From Verrucomicrobiota bacterium (lineage in GTDB: Bacteria; Verrucomicrobiota; Verrucomicrobiia; Limisphaerales; CANJSG01): a stretch of DNA of 18,209 nt. The position numbers and the translations under genes are program-made. The notes under the pieces are model-generated. The model was given only the letters and a program-made list of their open reading frames with translations. It ran no database searches and was not told the origin of the DNA. This document shows, in pieces, positions 2,056-17,114 of this stretch. Location of the stretch: assembly GCA_038209745.1 (NCBI GenBank), contig JBBQXJ010000092.1, forward strand, positions 1-18,209, written 5' to 3'. The stretch's first letter is position 1; every line of letters begins with the position of its first letter.

Positions 2056-3159
2056 TCATTCGGGATAGGTGCCGGCGAGTTCGACGGTCCGCGCCTTGAA
2101 GGCGATGGGCTGTTCGGTGGCCGTTTCCTGGTCGTCGAAGTTGTGCTCCCAGTTCGGGTCGAGGCCGAGGTCCTTGAGCATCTGGAGGTCTTTTTCTACC
2201 GATTGGTTCAGTGTGGTCAGGTAGTTGCCGACCATCAGCGCACTGGCTCCGGCGGTGAAGATCATGCTCTGGAGATCGCGCAGGTTCACCGTGCGGCCTC
2301 CGGCGATCATGATCTCCTGGCGGGGCAGGAGAAAGCGGAAGCAGGCGATGGTCTTGAGGATCTCCATCGGCGGCAGCGGCGGCATGTTCTCGAACGGAGT
2401 CCCCTTGATGGGGTTGAGGATGTTGATCGGGCAGACATTGGCGCCGATTTCGCGCAGGGTCAGGGCGAGATCGCAGCGGTCCTCGCGGCTCTCTCCCATG
2501 CCGATGATGCCACCGGAGCAGATCTTGATGCCGGCCTTCTTCAGATACTCGATGGTCTGGAGACGGTCGTCGAAACTGTGGGTCGTGCAGTGGTGGCCGA
2601 AGAAGGCACGGGAGCTCTCCAAGTTGTGGCCGTAGCATTCGAGCCCGGCATCCTTGAGGCGGTCGGCGACTTTTTGGCTCTTGATCAGGCCGAGAGAGGC
2701 GTCGGGTCGGACTTTGCCGCCGGCCTTCAGCTCGCTGATCCGGTCGCAAACCTCGTCCAGCAGCGGACCTTCATTCAGGCCTTTCCATGCGGCGACGATG
2801 CCGAGAGCGGTCACGCCGTTGGCGCCCGCTTCGGCGGCGGCTTCTTCCAGCGGCGCGGGATCGACGAAGCCGTATTTAGGGGAGCCGGTCTGGTGGAAAC
2901 TGGACTGGGCGCAGAAGGAGCAATTCTCCGAGCAATTGCCGGCCTTGGCGTTGACGATGGAGCAGAGGTGGATCTTGTTTCCCTTGAAGCGCTCTCGGAT
3001 ACGGTTGGCCCAGGCGATCAAGTCCATGATGTCGCCGGTGGACTCAAGGCCGAAGAGGAACAGGGCTTCGGCCTTCTCGATGCGTCCGCCGCCAAGGACC
3101 GTTTGTCCCAGTTCTGAAATCCGTTGGTGATGGGTCACGTCAACCGCTGTGCTCGACAT
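2056..3159 (-). CDS. bioB: Biotin synthase (radical SAM) with atypical auxiliary-cluster ligands
   Basis: CSENCSFC radical SAM motif in NAKAGNCSENCSFCAQS; also HNLES, ICSGGIIGMGE, PINILNPIKGTP, AGGR and GNYLTT. ATG at 3159 is preferred over TTG at 3168 because 3167-3172 looks like a -10 box. Confidence 0.88.
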   Translation of the reverse strand: MSSTAVDVTHHQRISELGQTVLGGGRIEKAEALFLFGLESTGDIMDLIAWANRIRERFKGNKIHLCSIVNAKAGNCSENCSFCAQSSFHQTGSPKYGFVDPAPLEEAAAEAGANGVTALGIVAAWKGLNEGPLLDEVCDRISELKAGGKVRPDASLGLIKSQKVADRLKDAGLECYGHNLESSRAFFGHHCTTHSFDDRLQTIEYLKKAGIKICSGGIIGMGESREDRCDLALTLREIGANVCPINILNPIKGTPFENMPPLPPMEILKTIACFRFLLPRQEIMIAGGRTVNLRDLQSMIFTAGASALMVGNYLTTLNQSVEKDLQMLKDLGLDPNWEHNFDDQETATEQPIAFKARTVELAGTYPE

Positions 3160-3166
3160 GGTTGAC

Positions 3167-3194
3167 AAGGTAGGGAGGCGGGAAGCGAGCGCAA
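3167..3194 (-). promoter_or_regulatory. Putative sigma70-type promoter of bioB, probably leaderless
   Basis: Minus strand TTGCGC (3194-3189), 16 nt, TACCTT (3172-3167), 7 nt, ATG (3159); no Shine-Dalgarno sequence. Confidence 0.5.
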
Positions 3195-3273
3195 GAACGG
3201 ATGCGAAACGCCGGGAATGAACCGCGGATTTTCCGAGAGGTGCCCTGCGAATCGGCGGCGATCCAAGAGTCCG

Positions 3274-5400
3274 CTATTTTGCGACCGGGGCGAGTGCTTT
3301 GCCGTCAAATCCGGCCGATTTCAGGATCGAGGATTGAAACCGCCCCACATGGTAGTTGTGGCAGGTGGTGCAGTCGGCTCTGACGAACGCGGGTTGATGA
3401 CAGGAAGCGCAGGAAGTTTGGGTGACGCCGCCGAAATTGCTGTGCGCGATGAAAGCGTCCCTTTGTCCCGGCTTGTAGGCACTCGCGAATGCGTCTGGAT
3501 CGGCTGTCACCTTCAGAGAATGACAGGTCTGACACCCTTGACCCTCCAACAGACTGACGTGGGCCGAATGGGCAAAACGGGTGAACTTGTGCTCCATCCG
3601 GTCGGGCCGCCGTCCCGTCCAGTTGACGCGGAAGTCGGGCTTCGAATCGATGCTGTGGCACTTGGCACAAAGCCCGGGGGCCTTGGCTCCCGCCACTTCG
3701 TCGAACAGCGCCCCGGCAACCGCGGGAAGTGCGGTCTTATTCGTGTCCACGGTCAGATTCATCCATTCGGTGAGGAAGCGGTCGGCGTGTCCGCGCGGCC
3801 GATATTTCAAGGCAAACGACGCATCGGCGCTATACCAGCCGCCCAGGTTCACGCGGACATCGGGCGGAGCGGTTTTGACGGCGGTGGCTTTGGCCAAGGG
3901 AGGCGAGGGCATAAGTTCCGTGTCGGCTGCCTCGCCCTTGGTCCGGTAGTTGATGACTTCGTCCTGGAGACGGGGGAAGCCGGAAGCGAACGCTGTGCGA
4001 ATCACATCGGAGGTGATGAACGCCGTGATTGACTCCTGTTCATGGCTGGTCAGCTGTCGACCGAGCGACTTGGTCAGACGTTCGATCAGTTCGTCCTGGC
4101 CACGAGTGACCACGTCGAAGATCAAGCCTTTGATGCCCCACGCCACGGTCTGGGCCGCCGCGAGCTTCGCGGTATCGGTCTTTGAAATGTCGGATAAATC
4201 CGCTTCTCCCAAGGTTCCCATGGCGGAAAGAACCTTCGGGTCTGCCGCCAATAGGAGGCGTAGGAAGGGCGTCATCGGCTGTTCGGCGTCCTCCGGCCAT
4301 TGGCCGATGCCGAACTTGCCCGTCAGGCTGCGGTCGTCGAATCGAGGCAGGCCGATGAACGTGAGCCCGATCTTTACGGCGCCCTTGCCCTTGATCTGGT
4401 CGTCGTGGCAGGGCGCACAGGTCACCTCGTAGGGTTTGAGGGTCATGCTGGCGCCCTTGAGGTCGGGTTCGTGGCAACTGACGCAGGAGGTCGGCGCCGA
4501 GGGGGCGGACGCCGCGTCGGTGAAGTGGTGCTTCAGGTGGGAATCATGGTCGAAGATGATCCGGGTTCGCCGGGTGAACGGCTCTTTGGGAAACGGAGGA
4601 TGACCCGCCGCGAATCCGGAAAACTGGACGGAGTGGCAGCTTTGACACTGCATGTCGGTGATCGTCCGCAGGTCGTGGTTCGCGCCGAGATGCTCTTGAT
4701 GGCAGACAGCACAGTCCAGTTGCTGGGCGGCGGAGTCGTGCCTCCGACTGGCCAAGGAGGCGACTGCCAGGCTGGCAGTCAGCTTTCCGGTGGGCTTTCG
4801 GCCCAGCACGGCCTCGGTCAGGAGCTTGAGCGTCTCCTCGGGCAAGGCATGAGGCCGAAATGGCTCGCTGCCGACGTTGTGACAGTCGAGGCAAAGCCGG
4901 CCGTCTGTCGCGAGGTGGTTCGTCCCTGTGAGCCAACGGGCGGGCGGGCCTTCCAGTCCGGGGTGGCAATCGGAGCATTTAGAACCGGTGAAAGCGTGTG
5001 AAGCACTGAGACCACCGGGAGAAAGGAAATTGTTGCCTCGGCGACTGGATCCGAAAACAAACAGGATCAAGGCCAAGCTGACGGCAAATGCGCCGAGCGA
5101 GGCGAGTCCGCGCCATGAACGAAGCCCTCGCAATGGGATGCACTTCGGAATGGTGCGGCAGCAGGCTCCGTCTGGAAGCGGTCCATCGGGACAGGGGCCT
5201 CCTTGGGAAGCGGCTCGCGTGCATTGCCAGCGGTCGCCTTTGCGGAGCGGACGGCATTCAGTGGTGGCGCGACAGTTTCCCTGGGCATCGGGTCCGACGA
5301 GACATCCGGCGCCGCTGCACGTCCGGCCGCAAACCCAAGTCTGATTGGGACGCTCGTAGGCGCTCTTCTTGAAGCTGAACTGTTGCAACCAGCGTTTCAT
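3274..5400 (-). CDS. Membrane-anchored decaheme cytochrome c (c3/c7-like motifs) with an N-terminal Cys-rich domain
   Basis: 10 CxxCH: CSDCH, CLDCH, CAVCH, CQSCH, CVSCH, CAPCH, CAKCH, CQTCH, CASCH, CTTCH. FDHDSH and FAHSAH distal-His motifs. TM helix LASLGAFAVSLALILFVFG follows a 10-Cys N-terminal region. ATG at 5400 lies 5 nt after the upstream stop, so it is preferred over 5421. Confidence 0.92.
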   Translation of the reverse strand: MKRWLQQFSFKKSAYERPNQTWVCGRTCSGAGCLVGPDAQGNCRATTECRPLRKGDRWQCTRAASQGGPCPDGPLPDGACCRTIPKCIPLRGLRSWRGLASLGAFAVSLALILFVFGSSRRGNNFLSPGGLSASHAFTGSKCSDCHPGLEGPPARWLTGTNHLATDGRLCLDCHNVGSEPFRPHALPEETLKLLTEAVLGRKPTGKLTASLAVASLASRRHDSAAQQLDCAVCHQEHLGANHDLRTITDMQCQSCHSVQFSGFAAGHPPFPKEPFTRRTRIIFDHDSHLKHHFTDAASAPSAPTSCVSCHEPDLKGASMTLKPYEVTCAPCHDDQIKGKGAVKIGLTFIGLPRFDDRSLTGKFGIGQWPEDAEQPMTPFLRLLLAADPKVLSAMGTLGEADLSDISKTDTAKLAAAQTVAWGIKGLIFDVVTRGQDELIERLTKSLGRQLTSHEQESITAFITSDVIRTAFASGFPRLQDEVINYRTKGEAADTELMPSPPLAKATAVKTAPPDVRVNLGGWYSADASFALKYRPRGHADRFLTEWMNLTVDTNKTALPAVAGALFDEVAGAKAPGLCAKCHSIDSKPDFRVNWTGRRPDRMEHKFTRFAHSAHVSLLEGQGCQTCHSLKVTADPDAFASAYKPGQRDAFIAHSNFGGVTQTSCASCHQPAFVRADCTTCHNYHVGRFQSSILKSAGFDGKALAPVAK

Positions 5401-5405
5401 CGGGT

Positions 5406-6215
5406 TCAGTGGACCAGCCACGCCAAGGCGCCGTGGACGACGGCGAAAACGATCATGGAATAGGTCAGTGGAATATGGACAAACAGCCAGCCCTTCAAGA
5501 GCCCTTGGCCGGCCAACTGCATGTCGAGATTGTTCTTGGCGCGGATCAGTTCCGTCACTTGGGTCATGATCGCCTTCTCTTCCGGGTTGAGATATCGGTC
5601 CAGCGCCTCAACCTCCGAAAGGAGCCGGAGCACTGGCTTTTGATATCCGACCAAGTGGCTGAAGATGAACCTCGGCTCGGCAAAATAGGGACGGAGCTTC
5701 TTCTCATAGAAATCCGCGATGGTGGACGAATTGGTTTGGCCAACCGAATCGATCACCACGTTCTCCACTTCTTGGCTTACCGCCGAGCGCAGGGCCGGGA
5801 TGCGCTCAAAGATCAGATTTTCGCCGGACAACGTGAGCCGGGAAGGCACCCATCGCGAGATGCCCAGACCCACGAATCCGCTGACCGCCACTCCAAGGAA
5901 GAGCACCGCCAACGTGGACTCGAGCCAACCGTGCGGCACTTTCGGACCCACATGGATGAAAAACAGGACGACCGAAAAGATGCCGGCGTAGATATGCACC
6001 TGCATCCACGTGGACGCCCGGAGGAGCGGAAGGAACGGGAGCTTCTTCCGTGCATTGAACAGGGTCAAAAGGAGAACCACCGTCATCAGGGACAGACCGG
6101 AAAAGATCGCGGGACGGCGCAGGTTGGCCGTCAAGGCGTGGTCCACCAGCCAGAAGGCCAGCGAGGCCAGGATCAGGACGGCGAGTCCCAAGCGGCGGCG
6201 GGTGGAGAACATCAT
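5406..6215 (-). CDS. Integral membrane diheme cytochrome b (ferric-reductase-like transmembrane domain)
   Basis: About five hydrophobic segments and two H-x13-H helices (WMQVHIYAGIFSVVLFFIH and WLFVHIPLTYSMIVFAVVH). ATG at 6215 overlaps the upstream TGA (ATGA). The ORF-track extension to 6539 is out-of-frame overlap with the upstream gene. Confidence 0.82.
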   Translation of the reverse strand: MMFSTRRRLGLAVLILASLAFWLVDHALTANLRRPAIFSGLSLMTVVLLLTLFNARKKLPFLPLLRASTWMQVHIYAGIFSVVLFFIHVGPKVPHGWLESTLAVLFLGVAVSGFVGLGISRWVPSRLTLSGENLIFERIPALRSAVSQEVENVVIDSVGQTNSSTIADFYEKKLRPYFAEPRFIFSHLVGYQKPVLRLLSEVEALDRYLNPEEKAIMTQVTELIRAKNNLDMQLAGQGLLKGWLFVHIPLTYSMIVFAVVHGALAWLVH

Positions 6216-7942
6216 CGTCTTTCGAGCCAAGTGGCCAGCCGGTTGGTGTCTCGCATATCGATCCGGACCATGGCGTCGTGGGGGCAGGCATTGGCACAGG
6301 CCGGCCCGGTGATCTGATCTCCACACAGGTCGCATTTGGCCGCCTTCTGGATCGGCTGGTTGGTGGCCTCGTCGAAGAAGGGGATTCCACTCGGCCTTCT
6401 TGCGGCCACCATCTGGATGTTGTCGTAGGGGCAGCTGTTGGCGCAGGTGGCGCAGCCGATACAGGTCTGGTCGTTGATCGTGACGCTCCCCTTGGCGGAG
6501 TCCCGATGGATCGCTCCGGTGGGGCAGCCGATCATGCACACCGGGTCTTGGCAGTGCATGCAGGCGTTGGCGACCATGAAGTTTCCATTCATGGGGCCGT
6601 GTCGGACGAAGCGGGGATTGTTGTCGTGCGTTGCGGCGCAGGCCCTCACGCAGTCATCGCAGCGAGTGCAACGGTCCATGTCGATGATCATGGTGGCCGT
6701 TCCATTGATGAAACGGCGTTCCACCAGGAACTCCATCATTTCGGGCTCGATGACCTTCTCTTCGACACTTTCTGCCTTGCCCGCATGGGCGGTTTTGCGC
6801 AGGGGGGATGAAGGCATGAGAGCCTTTGGCATTGTCGGGAGGACCACTCGGTCCATGACCGCGGTCGGGACGAACAGGACGTCGACATACCCCAGGGCCC
6901 GAAGGGAGCGCTGGAAAGGGATCTGGGCGTTGTCGCGCCAGTTGTGGGCCACTTCATCCAGACCGAAGCTTTGGCCGCGGCCAAGGTAGCTGACGGTCAA
7001 TTCTCCGTGGTTGTAGGATTCACTGAGGCGGGCGAATCCGGAGCGGACCAGATAGACGCCGTTGGCGTAGTGGCCTTCAACGGCCACGACCGGCTCGTTC
7101 TTCATTCGTTCCGCGGAGCTGGCTTCGCGCAGTTTACTGTAGGACGCGTGCCAGTCGAAGTTTCCAAAAGTCAGGAACTGGGTCGCCTCGGCCACCGCGT
7201 CCAGACTCGCGTCGTCGAGATGGCGAAACATCGGGGTCTCCCGAAGATGGCTCTTTAGGCTTCGCTCACGGTAGAGGCGGTCGACGTTTTCCTTGAATTC
7301 CGGACTGCGCAGGCGGATCTCGCGGAGCCCTTGCCAGCGGATTTCGAGCAGAACCGCGTCCGTGTCGGCGACGACCGTGCTTGTGCGGGGGGTTCGCCCC
7401 AAGGCGGCGATCTCTCCGAAAAGTTCTCCGTCTTTCAAGAGCGCCGTTCGCTTGTCCTTGATCAAGACGGTCACGTCTTGGAGGAAAATAACGTCGTGGC
7501 GCTCTCTCGATTCCGCCTGGCCGTCATCCTTGCGGTCCAGACTCCGAACCTCTGGTTGGCTTGGATTGGACCAAAGCTGGGCGAGCGCGGAAAAAAAGCT
7601 CTTTTTCTGGGGGGCCTTCCGGCCGATCAACGTTTCGTCCAGATGGTCCAGGACGACCTTTAGGTTGCCGGAGAGGATGAGGAAGGCGGAGTTCCCGTAG
7701 TCACCCTGGCGCACCACGATATCGCCCTTTTTAAAACTACGAACTCGGGCGTCGTTCTTCAAGATTCCCCGCAGCGGGGTGGACTCGGGAAACCGGCTCT
7801 TGTCCATGTCCCGGAACAGCGGCACCTCCGATTCAAGCCGCTCAACCTCCGCCTCGGTCATCTCCAAGCAGGAGCCCTCTGATGACTCGTTCCAGAAGGG
7901 AACGTCCCAACGTTGCGGTCGCTTGATGGTTGTTGAATCCAT
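6212..7942 (-). CDS. Two cyclic-nucleotide-binding (CAP/CRP-type) domains fused to a DmsB/NrfC-like 4x[4Fe-4S] domain
   Basis: cNMP domain 1: FKKGDIVVRQGDYGNSAFLILSG...GELFGEIAALGRTPRTSTVVA. cNMP domain 2: EGHYANGVYLVRSG...YLGRGQSFG. Fe-S motifs: CTRCDDCVRAC, CMHCQDPVCMIGCP, CIGCATCANSCP, KCDLC...PACANACP. No signal peptide. Confidence 0.92.
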   Translation of the reverse strand: MDSTTIKRPQRWDVPFWNESSEGSCLEMTEAEVERLESEVPLFRDMDKSRFPESTPLRGILKNDARVRSFKKGDIVVRQGDYGNSAFLILSGNLKVVLDHLDETLIGRKAPQKKSFFSALAQLWSNPSQPEVRSLDRKDDGQAESRERHDVIFLQDVTVLIKDKRTALLKDGELFGEIAALGRTPRTSTVVADTDAVLLEIRWQGLREIRLRSPEFKENVDRLYRERSLKSHLRETPMFRHLDDASLDAVAEATQFLTFGNFDWHASYSKLREASSAERMKNEPVVAVEGHYANGVYLVRSGFARLSESYNHGELTVSYLGRGQSFGLDEVAHNWRDNAQIPFQRSLRALGYVDVLFVPTAVMDRVVLPTMPKALMPSSPLRKTAHAGKAESVEEKVIEPEMMEFLVERRFINGTATMIIDMDRCTRCDDCVRACAATHDNNPRFVRHGPMNGNFMVANACMHCQDPVCMIGCPTGAIHRDSAKGSVTINDQTCIGCATCANSCPYDNIQMVAARRPSGIPFFDEATNQPIQKAAKCDLCGDQITGPACANACPHDAMVRIDMRDTNRLATWLERR

Positions 7943-7983
7943 TATTTTTTCAGGCGGTCACGGACAAGAAGCGGCGATGGTGA

Positions 7984-8013
7984 GCCCGGTCCCTCTTCAC
8001 AAGGGACGCGGGC
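7984..8013. other. Intercistronic GC-rich hairpin
   Basis: GCCCGGTCCCT-CTTCACA-AGGGAC(G)CGGGC: 11-bp stem with one bulge and no U-tract on either side. Confidence 0.5.
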
Positions 8014-8056
8014 CTCCGTCTGTCGGTCATGATTGTGCTGCGGAACTCCGGTCGGA

Positions 8057-9067
8057 CTAGGGGTGGTAGGGAGTGCCCTTGTATTTGTCCGGCGTGGGCA
8101 CGAGTGCGTCCACTGCGGCCAGATCGGAGCCATCGCGTCCGGCCGCCAGCTTGGCCGCGTTTTCCCCGACCGTGCCGGCCATCTTGGTCAAAGCGGCGCT
8201 GTTGTTGGGCTTAAGTTCGGCGGCGGTGACCAGATCGATCATCGCCTTGACCTCGACCACGGCGGGAGCAGCTTTCAAAATGGTTTCCAGATTCGTCTTG
8301 GCGGCGTTGACCCGGTCGATCATGGCCTTCGAGTAGATCCCGTCCACGGTCGCGTTGGCCAACCCGCGCAGACCGTATTCGAGATCCAGCGACCTCCCTA
8401 CGATGTAGAGCATCCTCTTCCGTGCCGCGGAATCCTCGTCGTTCGTTTTTCCGGCAGATTTTTGGAGATTGTGGCGCACTTCGCCTGAAAGCCAGGAGAC
8501 CAGTTCAAAGTCGCTGCCGGCTTTATGGCCGGCCACGTTGACCAGCTTCTCTTCAGGCACGGTGTGGCAGGAGAAGCAGTTGGCCGCGACGTGGTAGTAG
8601 TTGGAAGGCCGCAGCATTCCGAGCTTCTCAGCCTTGGTCAGCCTATCCGGATCATCCTTGTTGTTATGGACCTTGTTCCAGTCCGTTCCAGCCGAGTGGC
8701 AGGACTCACAGGAGATGCCGGAAATGGCGACGACCTTGTCGTCTTTCTGTTGCGACGTGTAGTGGCACTTCACGCAAAGGCTTTCGTCTTTGATGCGGCG
8801 CATCCCCAGCTTCTGCGCGATTTCCTTCGCTTCGGGACGCCGGTGCATGGAGTTGAACGTGTCGTAGTGATGCGTGAGCTTCCAAGCTTCCACCATCGGG
8901 GCGTGGCATTCGGCGCAGTTTTCAGCGCCAAGAATCTTGGTAGGGTCGGCGCGATAGAGCCCTTCGGCTGCGATTCCATCCAACGACAGGATCCCGCACA
9001 AAGCCGCTGCCAAGAGGCGCACGTGAGACAAGAATTTTACCGGTCGGATATTGGTTTGTGAGCTCAT
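8057..9067 (-). CDS. Periplasmic tetraheme cytochrome c (cytochrome c554-like family)
   Basis: Sec-type signal peptide; 4 CxxCH (GAENCAECH, CVKCH, GISCESCH, CFSCH); AGHKAGSDFE motif; Ala-rich, probably helical, C-terminal domain. Confidence 0.88.
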   Translation of the reverse strand: MSSQTNIRPVKFLSHVRLLAAALCGILSLDGIAAEGLYRADPTKILGAENCAECHAPMVEAWKLTHHYDTFNSMHRRPEAKEIAQKLGMRRIKDESLCVKCHYTSQQKDDKVVAISGISCESCHSAGTDWNKVHNNKDDPDRLTKAEKLGMLRPSNYYHVAANCFSCHTVPEEKLVNVAGHKAGSDFELVSWLSGEVRHNLQKSAGKTNDEDSAARKRMLYIVGRSLDLEYGLRGLANATVDGIYSKAMIDRVNAAKTNLETILKAAPAVVEVKAMIDLVTAAELKPNNSAALTKMAGTVGENAAKLAAGRDGSDLAAVDALVPTPDKYKGTPYHP

Positions 9068-9112
9068 TTGAAGCGTGGTTCGCTGGTTTCCGTTGATGTC
9101 GGCAGAATTGTT

Positions 9113-10372
9113 TTAGGCCTCCAGAATCAGATTCTCTTCAGGAACGCAGATGCACGTCAGGCAACTGCCTTCCTCGACTTCGCATCCTGGTTCTTTGAGA
9201 TACCTGACCTTGCCCGATTTGATCGCGGTCTTGCACGTCCCGCAGCTGCCCGCGCGGCAGCCAAAGCCTATGGCGATGTCTTCCGCGAGAGCGAAATCCA
9301 GCAGTGAATCGGCCTGGCCGTTCCAGTTCGTGGTCTTGTTGGAGCGGGAAAAGGTGACCGGAATGGCGGCTGCGGCCGGCACGGTTCCGGGTTCGGCCGC
9401 GGCTTTCTTGACGCTCGCGGGTCCGAACGCCTCCATGTGGATCTTGGGTTTGGGAACTTCCCAAGAGAGCAGCGCCTCGTTCATGCCGCTCATCATTTCC
9501 CCGGGGCCACAGAGATAGAAATCGAAGTTGTTCGACGGAAGAACCTTCTTGAGAAGGTTCAAATCCAGCCGGCCCTCATGATGGAAATCTCGGTCCGCGA
9601 GATCGTCTTCTCCGGGACGGCTGTAGCAAACGTGGAGATGGATGAACGGATTCTCGCGGGCCACCGCTTCCACATGGGCCTTCATCATGTGCTCTGCGCT
9701 GTTGCGTGCGGCAAAGAAGAACCAGACTTCCCGTTGCGGGCCCGCTTCTACGATCTCATTCAACATGCCCAAGACAGGGGTCAGCCCAACGCCGCCGCCG
9801 ATCAAGACCACCGGGTTTGTCCGGCTCATGTCGAGGTAGAAGGCGCCGCCTGGAGCCTTCACATCCACGATATCCCCTTCTTTCAGGGTTCCGTGGAAGA
9901 AGTTGGAAACGAGCCCCGGCTTGCCGTTGGGATCCTTGGGCGGCGCCGGAATGCGCTTGATCGTGACGCGATAGTAGTCGGGGCGCGGCCGGTCCGAGAG
10001 GGAGTAGCAGCGGACCACCCGGTTCCGCTGGCCTGGAATATCGAGTTCAAAGGTCAGATATTGGCCGGGTAGGAACGAGGGGAGGGGCCTTTTGTCGTGG
10101 GGGACAAGGTAGAACGAGCGGACATCCCGACACTCCTCGACGATGCGCTGGATCATGAACTTGCGGGTGCCGTTCCATGGAGCGTGGCTTTCCTGTCGTT
10201 TCAGCTGAAGGCGAGCGAGCTCGATCTTTCGGCTGAAAAGGTCCGACTCCATTCGCTGTAGCGCGCCGGTCGTGACGATTCGACGCAACGAGATGACGAT
10301 GGTTGAAGCCAGCTGCACTGCCACTAGCAGCGCTAGGGCGATCGCAAGATAGATCAGGGTCGTTGGCAGCAT
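9113..10372 (-). CDS. FNR-family FAD/NAD(P)-binding oxidoreductase with C-terminal [2Fe-2S] ferredoxin (PaaE/Hcr/PDR-like) and an N-terminal membrane anchor
   Basis: FLPGQYL, RCYSLS, GLVSNFFH, GGGVGLTP, FYLCGP and HMEAFG motifs; 2Fe-2S motif CRAGSCGTC...CLTC; hydrophobic N-terminus LIYLAIALALLVAVQLASTIVISL. Confidence 0.92.
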   Translation of the reverse strand: MLPTTLIYLAIALALLVAVQLASTIVISLRRIVTTGALQRMESDLFSRKIELARLQLKRQESHAPWNGTRKFMIQRIVEECRDVRSFYLVPHDKRPLPSFLPGQYLTFELDIPGQRNRVVRCYSLSDRPRPDYYRVTIKRIPAPPKDPNGKPGLVSNFFHGTLKEGDIVDVKAPGGAFYLDMSRTNPVVLIGGGVGLTPVLGMLNEIVEAGPQREVWFFFAARNSAEHMMKAHVEAVARENPFIHLHVCYSRPGEDDLADRDFHHEGRLDLNLLKKVLPSNNFDFYLCGPGEMMSGMNEALLSWEVPKPKIHMEAFGPASVKKAAAEPGTVPAAAAIPVTFSRSNKTTNWNGQADSLLDFALAEDIAIGFGCRAGSCGTCKTAIKSGKVRYLKEPGCEVEEGSCLTCICVPEENLILEA

Positions 10373-10390
10373 GGCTAGTGGATCGAGGCC

Positions 10391-11818
10391 TCAGAATTTA
10401 ACCTGCAATTCCATCCGGCCACCATAGATCTCGCGAGAATTGTCCTGAAGACCGCCGAAGGTGTCGAACCGGACGATATAGCGGCGGCCCAGAGCCTGCT
10501 GGATACGGATGCCCGTTGCGACGGCGCTCTGGGTGTTGCCGCTGGTCGGTGTGCGTCCCCCAAGCTCGAAGGTCAGTTGACGTCGGCGAAGCTCTCCGAA
10601 GAACATCTGGTATCCCAGCGCGCCGCCGGCGGCGTTTTGAGGATAGCTGCTCAGAGCACTGCCGTAGTGCCCAAGGCCGACTGCGTTGAACAAGATGCCA
10701 ACCCGCCCAAGAGGACCGCCGGAGATCGGGCTCCGATCCGCCGAGGAGAATCCATCAATGCCCCAGAAACCGTTTAAATAAGCGATGTCTTGGCCGTAGG
10801 ACGGCGTCAGGGACATTTCAGCGAACAGCAGGGTGCCTGTTTCGACTTTCGGGGACTCGATGTCCAAGGCGATGGACTGGGCCACGCGGAAGGTCGTGTT
10901 GATCTTTCCGAAACGTCGCGTCATCCCCAACCCGAGGAAGAGTCCGTCGCTTCCACCGCTGGACGGGACGTAGACCACGTCGCCTTGGAAGGTCGACTCG
11001 GGATAGTCGGCCGCGATGTCCAAGCCGATCAGTTTCGCGTCGTGATCCCGGATGTTGTTGGATCGGTCGATCTCGCTCCAGCCAAAGATCGCCGAAGCGC
11101 GGAGAGTCGATCCCCCGATGGGAAGGATCGAGTTCTTGGTGAGCGATACGAGGTCGATCGCCTCGTCCTGGACGATCAGTCCGTCCTGCAGGGTCAGAGG
11201 TTGGCGGCCGACTGAAATACCGATGTCGAGCGGGTATTTGTCGCTTTGGTCAAGTTTTGGGAAGATTTCCCCGAACTCTCCCTCGAAAAACAGGGTGCGT
11301 GGTCTGAACGTGTTGCCGCCGAAATCTTGATTCCAGCCCTGACCGCCCTTGGGCTCAAAAGTATAGCCCGTGAATTGTCCGTTCTGCTCAAGGGGCCGGA
11401 TTCCGACGACGATTCGCTCGGTGGCGGCCAAAAAGAGGTTTCCGTAGAGGTTCAGATTGTTGGCCCACTCGGTTATCCGACCCGTGCCATTTTGATAGGT
11501 CTGAACCGCCGTGCGGTAGTCGCCGTAGACCCAAAACGACGGATGCCAGACGGCTCCCGTGGGGAGGGTGAAAGCATGGCGAATGTTGCCGGTCCCGAGA
11601 AATGCGTCCCCCCACTCGATCAAGGGAGCTGGCCGTGCGGGGAAGGTGTCGATCTGCAGCGGCTTTGCCTCGTCGGAGAATCTGCTGGAATCGTCACTGT
11701 GGGATTCAGAGGACGATGTGGGTTCCGAGGCTCCGGCGGAGCAAGTGGCCGTTGCCGCGACGAGGCAGATTTGAAGTCCGTGCCCCAGAAGTGACGACGT
11801 GCTATTCGGTTTTCGCAT
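10391..11818 (-). CDS. Putative outer-membrane beta-barrel (porin-like) protein
   Basis: Signal-peptide-like N-terminus; many alternating amphipathic strands (LIGLDIAADY, FQGDVVYV, LFLGLGMTRR, LTFELGGR, VATGIRIQQ, YIVRFDTFGG); C-terminal beta-signal GGRMELQVKF ending in Phe; no CxxCH. Confidence 0.75.
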   Translation of the reverse strand: MRKPNSTSSLLGHGLQICLVAATATCSAGASEPTSSSESHSDDSSRFSDEAKPLQIDTFPARPAPLIEWGDAFLGTGNIRHAFTLPTGAVWHPSFWVYGDYRTAVQTYQNGTGRITEWANNLNLYGNLFLAATERIVVGIRPLEQNGQFTGYTFEPKGGQGWNQDFGGNTFRPRTLFFEGEFGEIFPKLDQSDKYPLDIGISVGRQPLTLQDGLIVQDEAIDLVSLTKNSILPIGGSTLRASAIFGWSEIDRSNNIRDHDAKLIGLDIAADYPESTFQGDVVYVPSSGGSDGLFLGLGMTRRFGKINTTFRVAQSIALDIESPKVETGTLLFAEMSLTPSYGQDIAYLNGFWGIDGFSSADRSPISGGPLGRVGILFNAVGLGHYGSALSSYPQNAAGGALGYQMFFGELRRRQLTFELGGRTPTSGNTQSAVATGIRIQQALGRRYIVRFDTFGGLQDNSREIYGGRMELQVKF

Positions 11819-13724
11819 AGGATTGGTCCGAATTGGGAATTTCAGCGAGGTTAAGAGTCTGTTTGGTTCCGTTCAGAGGAATGGAAACCTGCTTTTTCCA
11901 CAGAACGGAGTGGCCACCTTTTACGGCGTCGGCGACGTCTCGTGGGCTCATGTTGTAGTCGAAACCGACTACCTGGATCTCTGTGATAAGGTTGATCGGC
12001 ACCATGCCGGCCTTGACCTCGATGTCCACGTTGTACGGTCCGTCACCGGTCAGTTCCTTGCGGCTGAGCGCGTATTTTGCCCAGCGATGGCCCAAGGGTT
12101 CGATGCCGCGGCGCTGGATGCGGGCGCCGTTTGGTCGTCCTTGGAGGATTGTGGAAAACGGCTCAGGGCGGATGAAGGGCAATGGATCGACCGAGTAGTT
12201 GATGGCGAGAACCTGCTCCCGTTCGCTGCCGCGGAGATTCAGGGTGATGAACTTGGACTGGAGGCTGAACAGGTATTTGTCCAGTGGCAGTGTGCCGTGG
12301 TGCACATAGGAGGAATGCAGGTCCCGGACGTCCCCGTTCGGATCGAGATCGCCGGATTCAAAGACGGTCTTGCCTGCTTGGTCCTTGACCGTGACATGAA
12401 GCCAGAGGGGCCGCTCGGCATCGAAGCCGGTTGGCGCGTTGTGGCCGTCCGTCGCGTTGTTGAACTTGATGGCAAACTTGATCCCGTTCTTGTCTGCTTT
12501 GCTCACCACGAAATCGGTCAGTTGATAGGCCGCCCGCAGCAACTTCACCCTCTCCTTCTGGAGTTCGGCCAAAAGCTTGAACTGGTCGTTCAAGATGGCC
12601 CGCGCATCATAACGGTCGTCCACCGACTCCCAGCGTTTGGGAAATTTTGCTCCGGCCTTGACCGTATCCTCAAATTTATCGATGCCCCATCCGGCCTTGT
12701 AGTCGAAAGTCAGCCACTCGCGCATGGTTGCGAGGGCGGCTGCCTTGTCGTTGTGGGGAAAGAATCCCGGATGGACGATCGAGTAGTCCGGACCTGGGAA
12801 CATATGGCTGGTCAGCTTGCGGGGTTCGGTCGGCACGCCTCCGACGATGGCTGCGGGTCCCATTGCGTAGCCGGATTTTTTGCCTTGTTCCAGGCCCATG
12901 TGGCAGTCCTGACAAGTGGTCCCAGCGAGGGAAGCGGGAGAGTTCTTGAATGAGCTGAACGCCTCCTCGAGGCGGAACCCGTTCATCAAGGTGACATCGT
13001 GGCAGGTGCCGCAAAACGCGGATTCAGTGAGCTGGAAGAACTTCTTGGCGTCGGTGTGGATCTTTCGGCCCTGAGTCACATTGTTCGTCACGACCCGGTA
13101 GACCTTGGGCTCGCCGAGGACGCGCATCAGCTCCTTGTTGCCCGTCGGTCCGTAAACCGGAGCCAGAATGTCACCCTTTTCGAGGGCAAACCGTCCGCTC
13201 ACCTTGCCGTATGGGGTGTTCATCCGGTGGCAGACGATGCAGGTGATGCCCTCGCGCGATGTCGGGGTGCGGTCCATGTTGCTCATGAAGGTGGACTCTC
13301 CGAGGTTCATGCCCACTTGGGTGTGGCAGCGGATGCAGAAGTCGCCGTTCGAGCCGCTGGTCAGCTTGGTGATCGTCGCCTGCATGGCATTGAACACCGG
13401 GCTCAACTGGGCGTAGGCGTGGGACGAGACGGACCATTCGCGGTAGTGGTTCGGATGGCAGGTGCGGCATGTCGCCGCCGACGGATACGAATCTTCGACG
13501 AACAGATTTTCGTGGGCGGCGAAGGAATCGATCTTCTCGGCTCCTGCGGCGGGTTTTCCGGAGCCTGCCTGGGCCAGGATATACTCAACCAGTCCGTCCT
13601 TCTTGCCTTCGGGCGAATCCAACTGTCCCGCGCTCGACGGCGTATTGAACAGCAAGGGAAGGAGCAGCAATGATGCGAATCGGAGTGCCACGAACTCTCG
13701 TTGCCTGGTAGATAGTGTTTTCAT
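11802..13724 (-). CDS. Periplasmic pentaheme cytochrome c (c554/c552-like heme domain plus a large C-terminal beta-rich domain)
   Basis: Signal peptide (FASLLLLPLLFNTPSSA); 5 CxxCH (CRTCH, CIRCH, EGITCIVCH, CGTCH, CQDCHM); WSVSSHA, SHMFPG and GHNAPTG motifs typical of such multiheme proteins. Confidence 0.9.
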   Translation of the reverse strand: MKTLSTRQREFVALRFASLLLLPLLFNTPSSAGQLDSPEGKKDGLVEYILAQAGSGKPAAGAEKIDSFAAHENLFVEDSYPSAATCRTCHPNHYREWSVSSHAYAQLSPVFNAMQATITKLTSGSNGDFCIRCHTQVGMNLGESTFMSNMDRTPTSREGITCIVCHRMNTPYGKVSGRFALEKGDILAPVYGPTGNKELMRVLGEPKVYRVVTNNVTQGRKIHTDAKKFFQLTESAFCGTCHDVTLMNGFRLEEAFSSFKNSPASLAGTTCQDCHMGLEQGKKSGYAMGPAAIVGGVPTEPRKLTSHMFPGPDYSIVHPGFFPHNDKAAALATMREWLTFDYKAGWGIDKFEDTVKAGAKFPKRWESVDDRYDARAILNDQFKLLAELQKERVKLLRAAYQLTDFVVSKADKNGIKFAIKFNNATDGHNAPTGFDAERPLWLHVTVKDQAGKTVFESGDLDPNGDVRDLHSSYVHHGTLPLDKYLFSLQSKFITLNLRGSEREQVLAINYSVDPLPFIRPEPFSTILQGRPNGARIQRRGIEPLGHRWAKYALSRKELTGDGPYNVDIEVKAGMVPINLITEIQVVGFDYNMSPRDVADAVKGGHSVLWKKQVSIPLNGTKQTLNLAEIPNSDQSYAKTE

Positions 13725-13734
13725 GGTGACTGTG

Positions 13735-13777
13735 ATTGTTCGGCGTTTCTCAGCGGCTCAAAGTCGACCAAAATCAA
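13735..13777 (-). promoter_or_regulatory. Putative FNR/Crp-family box with class II promoter geometry upstream of the redox operon
   Basis: Minus strand TTGAT-TTTG-GTCGA (13777-13764; 8/10 match to TTGAT-N4-ATCAA) and a -10-like AACAAT (13740-13735). The box centre falls about 42.5 nt upstream of the implied start near 13728. Confidence 0.4.
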
Positions 13778-14021
13778 TCGGCATCCGCCCAAAGGGCGGA
13801 GTAAGCCGAGGAACGTCGGGATTCGATTTGAAATCTTCGCCACTTTGCCCTGAAGGCGGACGAGATCGGCATAGGTCGTTCTCAATGGGCGGAGCCCGAA
13901 TTCGGTTTGAATATCGGACGGTTCCCGCCACAGCTGAAACATCGCGGCGAAGACATCCTGGCGATGGATTGGATTCTTAGGAAACCATCGGTGAAGCCGC
14001 AACTTTTCTCTTGAAGGGATT

Positions 14022-14081
14022 CTAGGTGTGGAGGCTCAGGAGGTTGTTCATGAGGAGACGGAGCCGTGAGACGGGCGGGCG
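14022..14081 (-). mobile_element. IS481-family right-end remnant (terminal inverted repeat and CTAG target)
   Basis: Plus strand CTAGG-TGTGGAGGCTCAGGAGGTTGT resembles IS481 termini (TGT end, CTAG-containing target). The encoded tail RPPVSRLRLLMNNLLSLHT* resembles IS481 transposase C-termini (P-I-S-R-L...N-L-L-x-x-H-S/T*, stop inside CTAG). Confidence 0.7.
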
Positions 14082-14846
14082 GAAGCTGCGGGCCTTGCGC
14101 TTGACGGCGGAGAAGACGCGGTTGAGAGCTTCGAGGAGGGCGTTGGTCGTTTCGCGTAACCAGTGCGCTATGACGCCCTCGAGGTGCCGTTCGATCATCC
14201 GTGCGGTTTTCGCCCTAGCCGCAAACAGCGCGGCCGCATGCTTGCCGGCGGTCCAGCGCACCCGAAGGCACCAGGCGCGCCGTTTGCGCCGGGCCAGCGC
14301 GACGTCCGGGATCGCATAGATGGCTGGGAGGATCCCCCGCATCTGGGGCGCCTTCACGCTCGTTAGATTGCTTTTCAGCAGTCCGGCGTAACGCGCCGCC
14401 TGCGCGACGAGATTCGCGCGCACCCCGGCGATGTAGGCCGGACCCATCTCGATCGAGACCTCCGTGATCGTCCGCGGAGGGCCGTTGTGTTCGCCGAGCG
14501 CGGTGACGAAGGCGCCCCACGTGGCCGCGTCCTTGCCCGGCGTGGCGAAGCGCACGCGTCTGCCGATCAGGTCGCAAAACACGCCGACGTAATGGTGCGC
14601 TTTGCGCACGCTCAACTGGTCGCACCCTACGCAGACCACTCCGCTCCAATCCACCTTGGGCCACGCCGCCTCGCCGGCCGCGATGCTTTCCCCATTCCAC
14701 CGCTCGGGCGTCTCCTTGATCCACAACCGCGCCACTCCATCCAGTTCGCCCCGCGCGGTGCCCGCATTCGGCGCATACTCGCAGCGCGTCACCCGCCAGT
14801 GCCGGCCCAAACCGTGAAGTTCGTGAAACAATTGCTCAGGTGTCAT
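14022..14846 (-). pseudogene. Degenerate ISL3 transposase fused in frame to an IS481 transposase tail
   Basis: VGCDQLSVRKAHHYVGVFCDL (usual GxDE...RKGHxY), EVSIEMGPAYIAGV (usual SxDM), TTNALLEALN...KRKARSFR (usual TNAxxEGxN...ARGFR). Only 274 aa; the zinc-finger/HTH region and the DxFH segment are missing. Confidence 0.8.
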
Positions 14847-15072: not shown

Positions 15073-16527
15073 TCAGATCACCGGCCGCTCCTTGTGCCAC
15101 GGGGTCGCCTGCTCGTAGGCGTGGGCGACCTGGAGGATCGTTTCTTCTCCGAACGGTTTCCCAAGGATCTGAAGGCCGATCGGGAGCTTGGGCGACGCGG
15201 TGAAGCCGCAGGGCAGGCTCAGACCGGGGATGCCGGCGAGGTTGCAGGAGATGGTGAAGATGTCGCTCAGATACATCTGGAGCGGATCGTCGGACTTCTC
15301 GCCGATCTTGAAGGCGGCGGTCGGCGTGGTCGGCGTGATGATCGCGTCGACCTTTTCAAAGGCGTTGAGGAAGTCCTGGCGAATGAGGGTGCGGACCTTT
15401 TGCGCACGGAGGTAATAGGCGTCGTAGTAGCCGCTGCTGAGCACGTAGGTGCCGAGGATGATGCGGCGCTTCACTTCGGGACCGAAGCCCTGGCCGCGGG
15501 TGTTGCCATAGAGCTTCTCCGGCGAATCGCCCTCGACGCGGGCGCCGTAGCGGACGCCGTCGAAGCGCGCGAGATTCGAGGACGCCTCGGCCGTGGCGAT
15601 GATGTAGTAGACGGCGACGGCGTATTGGGTGTGGGGCAGCGAGATCTCGACGATCTCCGCGCCCAGTTCCTTGAGCTTGGCCACGGCGGCATCGACGCTG
15701 GCCTTCACCTCGGGATCGAGGCCTTCGACCATGTATTCCTTCGGCAGACCGAGCTTCAGACCCTTGATGCTCTGGCCGAGCGCGGCGGTGTAGTCGGGCA
15801 CCGGTTGGTCCACGCTGCTGGAGTCGCGCACGTCGCGGCCGCTGATGGCGCCGAGCATGGCGGCGGCATCGCGCACGTCCTTGGTGAAGGGCCCGATCTG
15901 GTCGAGCGAGGAGGCGAAGGCGACAAGTCCGTAGCGGGACACACGACCATAAGTGGGCTTCAAGCCGACGCAGCCGCAGAGCGCGGCCGGCTGGCGGATG
16001 GAACCGCCGGTGTCGCTGCCGAGCGTGGCGAAGGCTTCATCTGCCGCGACCGCCGCAGCGGAACCGCCGGAGGAACCGCCCGGAATGCGGCTGGTGTCCC
16101 AGGGGTTCTTGGTCGTCTGGAAAGCCGAGTTCTCGGTCGAGCTGCCCATGGCGAACTCGTCCATGTTCAAGCGGCCAAAGATGACGGCGCCGGCGGCCTT
16201 CAGCTTCTCGATGACGGTGGCGTCGTAGGGCGAAACGAAGTTGCCGAGAATCTTGGAGGAGCAGTTCAGCGGATGTCCTTTGACGTTGAGCACGTCTTTG
16301 ATGGCGATGGGCACACCGAGGAGCGGTCCGCGTTCACCGGCGGCCAACCGCTGGTCGGCGGCGGCGGCCTGGGCGAGGGCATCGGCCGCGTCGTGGCTCA
16401 GGAAGGCCTGGATCTTGCCGTCGACGGCGGCGATGCGGTCGAGGCAGGCCTGGGTGGCCTGGACGGAGGTCGTTTCGCCGGCGGCAAGCTGGGCTGCGAG
16501 TTCGGAAATGGTCAGGGAATGGAGCAT
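15073..16527 (-). CDS. gatA: Asp-tRNA(Asn)/Glu-tRNA(Gln) amidotransferase subunit A
   Basis: Amidase signature [52 protein letters not shown]; GatA-specific [13 protein letters not shown] and [22 protein letters not shown]. Confidence 0.98.
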
Positions 16528-16571
16528 GGGAGAATCAATTCAATTGAAGGAAGGCAACCCTCTGGGAGTGC

Positions 16572-17102
16572 TCAGTATTCAGAAGCCGACCCAGGAGAAG
16601 GTTTGGTTCCTTGTGCGGACAGATAGTTGAAGAAGTCCAATTCCATCCGGGCCAACTCTTCGGGACGGCCTCGCTTGAGATCGCGAAATGGTTGGAAGAA
16701 TCGGAAGACTTTTCCCAATCGGAACGGCCGAAAAACGACGGCAAGAGGATTGAATTCACGTCCTCCACCAAAAAGCCGGAAAACCGAGGCGGCGATGAAC
16801 TGCCGAAACGACCATTTCTTTCTTCGAGACCAGTTGAGGATCACGGCCTGCTTTTGAATCCGAGGAGTGATATGCTCTTCGTAGTAGTCATGCCAAACCG
16901 GGCTGTCCGAATAGACGAACAAGAGACGCTTTGAGCGCGGGAGCCAGAGTATCCAAACTGCCAAGTGCAGGCAGACGAAGGAGCCAAGATAGAAAACAGA
17001 CCATAGAACCAGCAACGGGAGCCAGAGCGGGGCGAACAGCAAGAGGACAAGAACCGCTAGAACGGAATTGCCACTGGAATTCTTGCGCTTGGTCTGCTTC
17101 AT
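16572..17102 (-). CDS. Hypothetical membrane-anchored protein between gatC and gatA
   Basis: 176 aa ORF exactly filling the gatC-gatA gap in the same orientation; long hydrophobic N-terminal segment then a soluble, basic, aromatic-rich domain (LFVYSDSPVW, VILNWS, FGGGREFNP). Confidence 0.7.
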   Translation of the reverse strand: MKQTKRKNSSGNSVLAVLVLLLFAPLWLPLLVLWSVFYLGSFVCLHLAVWILWLPRSKRLLFVYSDSPVWHDYYEEHITPRIQKQAVILNWSRRKKWSFRQFIAASVFRLFGGGREFNPLAVVFRPFRLGKVFRFFQPFRDLKRGRPEELARMELDFFNYLSAQGTKPSPGSASEY

Positions 17103-17114
17103 AACCGGCCTAGT

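Follow-up and report, generated by a model that had tools for sequence, protein, structure and literature searches.

The subject of this analysis is a cluster of genes for multihaem cytochromes and associated redox proteins on contig JBBQXJ010000092.1 of a Verrucomicrobiota bacterium from the order Limisphaerales (assembly GCA_038209745.1). The whole stretch of DNA that was analysed, hereafter called the window, comprises 18,209 nucleotides, and seven co-directional open reading frames (ORFs) occupy positions 3274-13724 of its minus strand. Judged by gene content and order, the locus is a copy of ptdABCDEFG, a cluster named after its penta-, tetra- and decahaem cytochromes and described from marine bacteria (bioRxiv 10.1101/2023.11.21.568154). 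An original prediction, made from the DNA letters alone, had proposed that these genes form a cyclic nucleotide monophosphate (cNMP)-regulated electron conduit leading from NAD(P)H to the outer membrane. All seven were found at the coordinates that it gave (lengths in amino acids, aa):

11802..13724, minus strand: ptdA, 640 aa, secreted pentahaem cytochrome c with its haem domain at about residues 70-310
10391..11818, minus strand: ptdB, 475 aa, predicted outer-membrane beta-barrel with 18 strands in the model
9113..10372, minus strand: ptdC, 419 aa, N-terminal membrane anchor followed by an FNR-family reductase (flavin adenine dinucleotide (FAD), NAD(P)H) and a C-terminal plant-type 2Fe-2S domain
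8057..9067, minus strand: ptdD, 336 aa, periplasmic tetrahaem cytochrome c
6212..7942, minus strand: ptdE, 576 aa, cytoplasmic, two domains for cNMP binding and a ferredoxin domain with four clusters (DmsB/HydN type)
5406..6215, minus strand: ptdF, 269 aa, candidate dihaem cytochrome b of the inner membrane with five helices plus a helical cytoplasmic insert (about 100 residues)
3274..5400, minus strand: ptdG, 708 aa, bitopic decahaem cytochrome c

ptdA and ptdB overlap by 17 bp, the next three junctions are gaps of 18, 45 and 114 nucleotides (nt), ptdE and ptdF share an ATGA stop/start overlap, and 5 nt lie between ptdF and ptdG, in agreement with the tight spacing read earlier. The starts adopted for ptdF (6215) and ptdG (5400) are shorter than those of the longest ORFs, and homologue alignments begin there. 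CxxCH motifs were counted at five in ptdA, four in ptdD and ten in ptdG, which yields the predicted sum of 19. A promoter and terminator scan of positions 3000-14200 is uninformative, because the 2 and 13 sites that it returned are not above the numbers in shuffled sequence (2.2 and 11.6).

The original prediction did not recognise the cluster as any characterised complex. This holds in so far as no characterisation was found; the cluster had, however, already received its name and a published description. Full-text literature searches on the ptd names and on the domain combination found only that one preprint. Its hosts are Alpha- and Gammaproteobacteria, Nitrospirales and Planctomycetes of marine or saline sites, ptdAB transcripts are reported from marine Alphaproteobacteria, and the words "Verrucomicrobia", "freshwater" and "NADPH" are absent from its main text (bioRxiv 10.1101/2023.11.21.568154). 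The components are the same as here and stand in identical order: a pentahaem cytochrome with an additional C-terminal domain, a porin, a FAD/NAD(P) oxidoreductase, a tetrahaem cytochrome, a protein combining cNMP and 4Fe-4S domains, a ferric-reductase-like membrane protein and a decahaem cytochrome. PtdA is in both cases akin to the pentahaem cytochrome c552 of T. tepidum (5ze8). Whereas the hosts in the preprint are marine or saline, the present copy is verrucomicrobial, and the 20 sequencing runs listed with the window DNA are DNA runs of sediment and soil metagenomes, no RNA run being among them. The copy is a new, probably verrucomicrobial and non-saline member of the named cluster. The passages of the preprint that deal with the cluster contain no electron path, and one is proposed below. 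Also added here are the four-gene core, the haem b ligands of PtdF, the count of four clusters in PtdE, its cNMP cassette, the Cys-rich tail of PtdG, the small barrel and the wide but patchy spread across phyla.

The domain assignments made in the original prediction were borne out by Pfam and NCBIfam. PtdC contains FAD_binding_6, NAD_binding_1 and Fer2; among 61 sequences its RCYS and GxGxTP motifs and Cys 372, 377, 380 and 406 are at least 95% conserved, and 60 of the 61 homologues begin with a hydrophobic N-terminal helix. The best NCBIfam match of PtdC is the nitric oxide (NO)-inducible flavohaemoprotein (269 bits against a cut-off of 432). This match is limited to the FNR half (residues 142-397 of 399), and PtdC lacks a globin domain.

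PtdE was expected to join cNMP-binding domains to a ferredoxin with four clusters, and two of its regions are of particular interest:

7373..7429, minus strand: phosphate-binding cassette of the first cNMP domain of PtdE, residues 172-190, FGEIAALGRTPRTST
6263..6691, minus strand: four-cluster ferredoxin domain of PtdE, residues 418-560

The cNMP_binding family (PF00027) was matched with 89.1 bits against a cut-off of 27.5 (1.9e-25, in three stretches), and Fer4 families were matched as well. HydN, AegA and DmsB-like models all scored below their cut-offs, and no equivalog model in NCBIfam was passed. All 56 sequences compared share residues F175, G176, E177, R183 and R186, which represent the canonical cNMP contact set G-E...R-[ST]; by its residues the first cassette is intact. 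Moreover, four groups of the CxxCxxCxxxC type supply 16 Cys that are invariant in the same 56 sequences (425/428/431/435, 461/464/469/473, 494/497/500/504 and 537/540/549/553). On these motifs PtdE carries four predicted [4Fe-4S] clusters, whereas two are counted in the preprint (bioRxiv 10.1101/2023.11.21.568154). No hydrophobic, signal or Tat-like N-terminus is visible in the PtdE sequence. The host genome encodes four class III cyclase-domain matches above cut-off, so a cNMP signal should be available in the cell.

The membrane protein PtdF was modelled with AlphaFold2 (AF2) as an all-helical protein (pLDDT 92.8) with five long membrane helices and a helical insert of about 100 residues. 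Two of the helices hold the candidate haem ligands:

5949..6017, minus strand: helix 3 of PtdF with His74 and His88 (H-x13-H), from homologue conservation
5412..5498, minus strand: last helix of PtdF with His247 and His261 (H-x13-H), from homologue conservation

These four His were found to be invariant first in 15 of 15 and then in 70 of 70 sequences, even at identities as low as 23%, and 13 residues separate the members of each pair. Such a pair of H-x13-H pairs is the pattern of dihaem b cytochromes. The earlier assignment of PtdF as a diheme cytochrome b is therefore supported by the four ligands expected for two b haems; it is a prediction and not proven. At E<=0.1, 45 of the 70 homologues touch DUF4405 (best 2.3e-6), 9 touch Ni_hydr_CYTB and 7 touch Ferric_reduct. 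For DUF4405, the Pfam family closest to PtdF, haem b binding was found experimentally and a part in moving electrons through the membrane was proposed (PMC11334425). A sequence search of the Protein Data Bank (PDB) with PtdF returned nothing useful (best E 0.041, GABA receptors).

A multimer prediction, one of the checks suggested earlier, was made for PtdE residues 400-576 together with PtdF. An ipSAE of 0.54 was obtained against 0.01 for the best control, with three runs agreeing in at least 97% of contacts and a partner pLDDT of at least 78. The mark applied to ipSAE is reached by 116 of 157 solved complexes and by 2 of 215 mismatched pairs, and only 18 of those solved complexes but both mismatches reach it at 0.60 or under. 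The score is rated as weak support, and it weakly suggests that PtdE docks on PtdF.

The touches on Ni_hydr_CYTB also bear on another reading, in which PtdF is a quinol- or quinone-reactive cytochrome b of the Ni-Fe hydrogenase cytochrome b, NarI or CybB-like kind. Under this reading the cluster would encode an ordinary reductase chain, periplasmic or extracellular and linked to quinones, in which PtdC and PtdE serve as a regulator or a side input. E. coli Hyd-1 cytochrome b is among the structural neighbours of PtdF (Z 7.4) and, to our knowledge, the extracellular and periplasmic electron transfer routes characterised in Gram-negative bacteria all start at the quinone pool. A chain of cytoplasmic Fe-S clusters would nevertheless have no evident role on a quinol oxidase, and this reading is also opposed by the presence of PtdC and PtdE beside PtdF at 40 and 41 of 42 loci (see below), by the ATGA overlap of ptdE and ptdF and by the weakly supported contact just described. 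We consider a quinone-reactive PtdF quite improbable.

The decahaem cytochrome PtdG was found to extend to both sides of the inner membrane according to its predicted topology:

5116..5400, minus strand: N-terminal Cys-rich tail of PtdG, residues 1-95, predicted cytoplasmic
5050..5109, minus strand: membrane helix of PtdG, about residues 98-117, following the tail and preceding the first haem motif, from a hydropathy scan

Its Pfam matches are Cytochrome_C7 (2.6e-14) and Paired_CXXCH, and ten CxxCH motifs are kept in 76 of 77 homologues, the exception being an ORF of 183 aa. The roughly 95 residues ahead of the single hydrophobic helix contain 10 Cys, of which Cys 43, 60, 70, 80 and 87 occur in all 12 sequences compared and Cys 24, 33 and 49 in 9 of them. 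In all 74 distinct homologues, 5-11 Cys precede this helix, and the lowest 19-residue hydropathy mean of the helix among them is 1.59. Because c-type haems are attached in the periplasm and the single helix separates the tail from the haem body, the tail is predicted to be cytoplasmic. PtdG is periplasmic in the preprint (bioRxiv 10.1101/2023.11.21.568154), whereas here it has a membrane anchor and a cytoplasmic tail. The topology foreseen in the original prediction, with one helix each in PtdC and PtdG and no signal sequence in PtdE, agrees with these results. A PDB sequence search with PtdG gave nothing useful (best E 0.045).

Like PtdG, the other two cytochromes have domains of the cytochrome c554/c7 type. 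PtdD matches Cytochrome_C554 (7e-14) and keeps four CxxCH motifs in 47 of 48 homologues, with the non-motif His 67, 134, 181 and 199 conserved in 47-48 of 48 sequences. PtdA matches the same family (1.3e-9) and, in the PDB sequence search, 5ze8 "cytochrome c552" (E 7e-7, residues 82-176). Five CxxCH motifs are present in 30 of 31 PtdA homologues and six in the remaining one, and the non-motif His 71, 102, 223, 307 and 428 are invariant in 31 of 31 sequences. In both proteins the number of conserved non-motif His equals the number of haems, which fits bis-His electron-transfer haems and not an open catalytic haem; the haems of PtdA and PtdD are apparently all bis-His. The N-terminal signal-like hydrophobic stretch of PtdA contains no Cys, and no lipoprotein signal was found in any of the cytochromes of the cluster. 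The C-terminal 250-300 residues of PtdA are free of haem motifs. This part counts as a beta-sandwich in the description of the named cluster; here the last 252 aa have no Pfam match, and a weak PDB sequence match to the Ig-like repeat protein 4p99 (E 0.009) was recorded. Among the homologues there are a PtdA with six CxxCH motifs from Poribacteria (L115:75-1946), a PtdA of 842 aa (L084:1175-3703) and a PtdG of 965 aa (L072).

Two suggestions are made in the preprint, iron reduction by a porin-cytochrome complex and participation in nitrogen cycling (bioRxiv 10.1101/2023.11.21.568154), and the haem ligation of PtdA bears on the second. In the nitrogen-oxide version PtdA would be an NrfA-like catalytic cytochrome acting on nitrite, NO or hydroxylamine, and PtdC an Hmp-like, NO-related reductase. 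The preprint places PtdA in the NrfA COG, describes PtdC as flavohaemoprotein-like and reports the cluster in Nitrospirales, and the best NCBIfam match of PtdC given above points the same way. Five CxxCH motifs and five invariant extra His are, however, enough for five bis-His haems in PtdA, which shows no obvious open catalytic haem and no CxxCK. PtdC resembles only the FNR half of Hmp, without its globin, and the NrfH and NapC matches of PtdA are far below cut-off. A nitrogen-oxide enzyme is the remotest of the explanations considered here.

The beta-barrel assigned to PtdB has no Pfam or NCBIfam match, and its AF2 model is indeed a barrel (mean pLDDT 79.9, with residues 1-15 and 24-79 below 50). 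Counting of DSSP elements in this model gave 18 strands. The best Foldseek matches are the MOMP 5ldt, OprD/Occ and AlgE (E 1e-11 to 1e-9), and with TM values of 0.5-0.65 to these matches the strand count, which rests on a predicted model, is not certain. PtdB ends in Phe and has a disordered, acidic and Ser-rich N-terminal stretch of about 55 residues; CxxCH is absent from all 34 PtdB homologues. MOMP, OprD/Occ and AlgE are 18-strand channels, while the barrel of MtrB has 26 strands. The PtdB barrel, as modelled, looks too small to sheath a cytochrome in the manner of MtrB.

This size matters for the possibility of an MtrCAB-style wire across the outer membrane, in which PtdB would sheath PtdD or PtdA and electrons would reach insoluble minerals or electrodes. 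Like Ptd, MtrCAB, MtoAB, PioAB and Geobacter Pcc have a porin gene clustered with genes for multihaem cytochromes. Ptd differs from them in its barrel (18 strands in the model against 26 in MtrB), in having no lipoprotein outer cytochrome and in the absence of a quinol dehydrogenase of the CymA, ImcH or CbcL type. Besides the adjoining porin and cytochrome genes, such a wire would be in keeping with the constant co-occurrence of ptdA and ptdB (22 and 22 of 42 loci) and their 17-bp overlap, and the disordered N-terminus of PtdB could hold a partner. The preprint also draws this analogy (bioRxiv 10.1101/2023.11.21.568154). The modelled barrel with its best matches among 18-strand solute channels, the large non-haem domain of PtdA (640 aa), the lack of any cytochrome with a lipobox and the 0 of 34 PtdB homologues with a haem motif all speak against it, and we hold it to be highly improbable. 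The predicted conduit to the outer membrane is weak as such. The alternative offered in the original prediction, in which the porin would feed a periplasmic reductase, is the better fit and is preferred because the barrel has the size of a solute channel, no lipoprotein cytochrome is encoded and the PtdB homologues lack haem motifs.

Known porin-cytochrome systems were also considered as relatives. Weak matches of Ptd to MtrC/MtrF domain II/IV and DmsE-family models were seen, and the MtrAB-type family models were rejected: TIGR03508 (DmsE/MtrA decahaem) scored 30.5 bits against 192.2 and TIGR03507 (OmcA/MtrC) 20.7 against 209.3. The verrucomicrobial porin-cytochrome clusters of He et al. (2017) are a different system, in which the cytochromes have eight haems and the porins 20 or more strands (PMC5615132). 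Multihaem cytochrome loci of Limisphaera, which might include ptd, have been described with 6-11 haems and OMR-family porins (PMC13608581).

Conservation of the cluster was assessed by searching a PtdF alignment of nine closer rows against GTDB species representatives, which found at least 498 relatives. The best 80 loci were kept; they comprise 65 from Verrucomicrobiota, 13 from other phyla (Myxococcota, Planctomycetota, Poribacteria, SAR324 and Pseudomonadota) and 2 unclassified. Since these are the closest relatives of the PtdF of the window, the proportions below are not a census. Genes were counted with our own bit-score thresholds at the 42 of 80 loci that have at least 8.5 kb upstream and 2.5 kb downstream of ptdF. 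The co-occurrence on which the original prediction depended was found: ptdG is present at 42, ptdE at 41, ptdC at 40, ptdD at 27, and ptdA and ptdB at 22 each. In 65 loci evaluated with shorter flanks, ptdE was present in 64 and ptdG in all 65. The arrangements at the 42 loci are C-E-F-G only (14), A-B-C divergent from D-E-F-G (11), all seven genes collinear (10), C on the opposite strand beside D-E-F-G (4) and others (3). The ptd genes travel as a unit, and C-E-F-G is a separable core of it. Recurrence in dozens of genomes places the arrangement far beyond chance. No other ORF family occurs in more than 5 of 29 long-type loci, so the seven genes appear self-contained, and for this reason the cluster should be portable into a laboratory host.

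Only one well-flanked locus (L081) was found to have ptdF and ptdG without ptdE or ptdC within 10 kb, its 10-kb upstream flank being present. Short-type loci often contain a divergent c554-family cytochrome of about 400 aa upstream of ptdC (L036:4837-6090, L037:8587-9780, L044:6094-7281). In about 10 of 19 short-type loci a protein of 510-790 aa with a C-terminal HbpS-like (haem-degrading protein) domain is encoded nearby (L093:12521-14215, L119:12433-14331, L036:11777-13432). One genome (G040) carries, on two contigs, both a seven-gene long-type locus (L031) and a four-gene short-type locus (L036), whose PtdE proteins are 66% and 49% identical to that of the window; because both are kept in one genome, the two types are probably not interchangeable.

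The distribution of the cluster is patchy, as PtdF was detected at E<=1e-20 in just 13 of 401 genomes of an evenly drawn phylum sample. Closer to the window, the 41 genomes comprising its own and 40 relatives encode full-length PtdE at E<=2e-150 in 13 cases and a distant form (about 1e-45) in 3 more. Two of 16 loci from close relatives have all seven genes in the same order, and most others have C, E, F and G. Collinear seven-gene copies occur in metagenome-assembled genomes (MAGs) of Pseudomonadota, Planctomycetota, SAR324 and Poribacteria; one such locus, in a Kiloniellales (Alphaproteobacteria) MAG (L101), encodes a PtdA with 60% identity. In a PtdE tree of 78 rows (SH-aLRT only), the window belongs to a clade of ten verrucomicrobial rows that has full support and of which nine rows come from collinear seven-gene loci; two copies from its own genus fall elsewhere, and the non-verrucomicrobial rows are scattered. 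This pattern suggests that the cassette has been transferred, although contigs can be misplaced by MAG binning. The remnant of an ISL3 transposase upstream of ptdA, described with the neighbouring genes below, fits arrival by transfer.

Congeners of the window carry a third arrangement. Four genomes of the genus (G001, G002, G003 and G006; L040-L043) have D-E-F-G with a decahaem protein of 537-541 aa, together with ptdC and a distant barrel (27% identity), both on the opposite strand. Their PtdE is 45-49% identical to that of the window, and the PtdE of G001 and G002 groups in the tree with Kiloniellales and Phycisphaeraceae rows.

A functional analogy to the core was found in the NOX/FRE/STEAP enzymes and the bacterial pair Fre-MsrQ. 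These, as is predicted for Ptd, combine an NAD(P)H-FAD dehydrogenase with a membrane protein in which two His pairs on two helices bind two b haems. In NOX, electrons leave the cytoplasm without the quinone pool. PtdF agrees with the NOX/ferric-reductase rule of two His pairs with 12-13 residues between their members (H74/H88 and H247/H261). The differences from NOX and ferric reductases are that the dehydrogenase of Ptd is a separate, membrane-tethered protein with an added 2Fe-2S domain, that a four-cluster ferredoxin with cNMP domains is interposed, and that PtdF consists of five helices with about 100 residues inserted on the cytoplasmic side. Furthermore, the acceptor in Ptd would be a decahaem cytochrome c rather than the O2, Fe(III) or MsrP of NOX, ferric reductases and MsrQ.

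Taken in this way, the four polypeptides of the core, PtdC-PtdE-PtdF-PtdG, would together make up a split electron exporter of the NOX kind. Oxidation of NAD(P)H at the cytoplasmic face would fall to PtdC, which is tethered to the membrane and would pass electrons through FAD to its 2Fe-2S cluster. Cytoplasmic PtdE would relay them from there through its four [4Fe-4S] clusters, with the cNMP domains gating the relay, and two bis-His b haems in PtdF would take them through the inner membrane. In the periplasm they would be accepted by the ten c haems of PtdG, itself anchored in the membrane, and PtdD (four haems) and PtdA (five haems) would hand them by outer-sphere transfer to a small soluble acceptor. 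PtdB, as an 18-strand solute channel, would admit or release the small redox-active solute that PtdA reduces in the periplasm; chelated Fe(III), quinone or humic compounds or another shuttle are candidates. The order of cofactors from NAD(P)H to the haems that was first proposed is chemically sensible, and every cofactor-binding motif in it is conserved. We assign a probability of roughly 0.55 to this split, NOX-like and possibly cNMP-gated route (NAD(P)H to FAD, 2Fe-2S, four [4Fe-4S], two haem b, decahaem and tetra/pentahaem, with PtdB as a solute channel). From the observed gene content, motifs, predicted topology, conservation and synteny we infer its protein contacts, direction of flow, cNMP gating, independence of quinones and acceptor.

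Outward flow is favoured because FNR-type reductases with a C-terminal 2Fe-2S domain normally oxidise NAD(P)H and send electrons outward, and because the membrane potential should favour electrons leaving the cell. The opposite direction has to be weighed, in which low-potential periplasmic or extracellular donors (H2 or formate by way of cytochromes, or reduced humics) would feed PtdA, PtdD and PtdG, and electrons would pass through PtdF and PtdE to reduce NAD(P)+ on PtdC. The architecture is symmetric in this respect: Tmc, Hmc and DsrMKJOP of sulfate reducers likewise link periplasmic multihaem c, a membrane cytochrome b and a cytoplasmic Fe-S protein, and they run inward. The c haems of Ptd all appear to be bis-His, and such haems are usually of low potential; FNR enzymes are, moreover, reversible. 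Inward electrons would nonetheless have to run against the membrane potential, so that only donors well below NAD(P)+ could drive them, and reductases with the FAD-NAD-2Fe2S order of PtdC are known as oxidisers of NAD(P)H. Neither a hydrogenase nor a formate dehydrogenase accompanies the cluster, the long-type loci having no extra family above the 5 of 29 given earlier. Inward flow is therefore unlikely. The sulfate-reducer complexes also differ from Ptd in having Fe-S subunits of the CCG/HdrD type and a NarI-type cytochrome b and in lacking a flavin/NAD(P)H or cNMP module. No sequence kinship with them beyond generic Fer4 and cytochrome c3 was found, the scores of TmcA (22.7 bits), DsrO (54) and HmcB (41) being far below cut-off.

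Several findings weigh against the proposed export route. For PtdF, the family scores of the window protein stay below threshold (DUF4405, PF14358, 23.9 bits against a cut-off of 26.7; Ferric_reduct 15.9 bits against a gathering score of 28). Foldseek gave no match at E<=0.001, and in the fold search nothing stood above helical-bundle background, with Z values of 8.1 for a designed two-haem bundle, 7.5 for STEAP4, 7.4 for Hyd-1 cytochrome b and 7.2 for STEAP1. PtdF may hold a quinone site. As to gating, the second cNMP domain of PtdE retains its cassette but with an insertion, and CRP/FNR-type domains can bind ligands other than cNMP. The PtdG tail has no Pfam match. No neighbouring gene points to a terminal acceptor, and no terminal reductase or iron-uptake gene is conserved around the long-type loci. 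Sending NAD(P)H electrons out while pumping no protons is wasteful of energy, and a purpose such as redox balancing or iron reduction must therefore be assumed. Finally, the function of ptd "remains completely unknown" in the words of the preprint (bioRxiv 10.1101/2023.11.21.568154).

A wider version of the export route is put forward only tentatively. In it, Ptd would be a quinone-independent, second-messenger-gated electron valve and a multi-subunit bacterial counterpart of NADPH oxidase that feeds a 19-haem periplasmic chain. It would let fermentative Verrucomicrobia and members of many other phyla dispose of reductant on soluble acceptors (Fe(III), humics or other shuttles) that enter through a dedicated channel, and C-E-F-G would be a widespread, unnoticed inner-membrane entry module for extracytoplasmic electron transfer. 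If this were true, a start at NAD(P)H and a cyclic-nucleotide switch would mean a different coupling of metabolism to outside acceptors from that of the routes that begin at quinones. It would also be relevant to carbon turnover by the abundant polysaccharide-degrading Verrucomicrobia of anoxic sediments, soils and lakes.

The surroundings of the cluster in the window consist of genes of other kinds. Directly upstream of ptdA, between it and gatA, lies an ORF of 274 aa (14022-14846, minus strand) that matches part of the transposase domain DDE_Tnp_ISL3 (E 6e-18, profile positions 131-231 of 240), the ISL3 remnant mentioned above. On the other side bioB (2056-3168) is followed downstream by an ORF at positions 2-1861 (minus strand) that runs off the end of the window; it has GDSL-like lipase and DUF7133 domains (E 1.5e-53) and looks unrelated to ptd. 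The cluster is flanked by gatC and gatA at 15073-17396 (minus strand), and a 176-aa ORF between them (16572-17102) has no Pfam family. In a Limisphaerales MAG (L118, 12897-14679), gatC and gatA also flank a ptd cluster of the short type but on its opposite side, and the GatA of the window is 79% identical to the GatA of that MAG.

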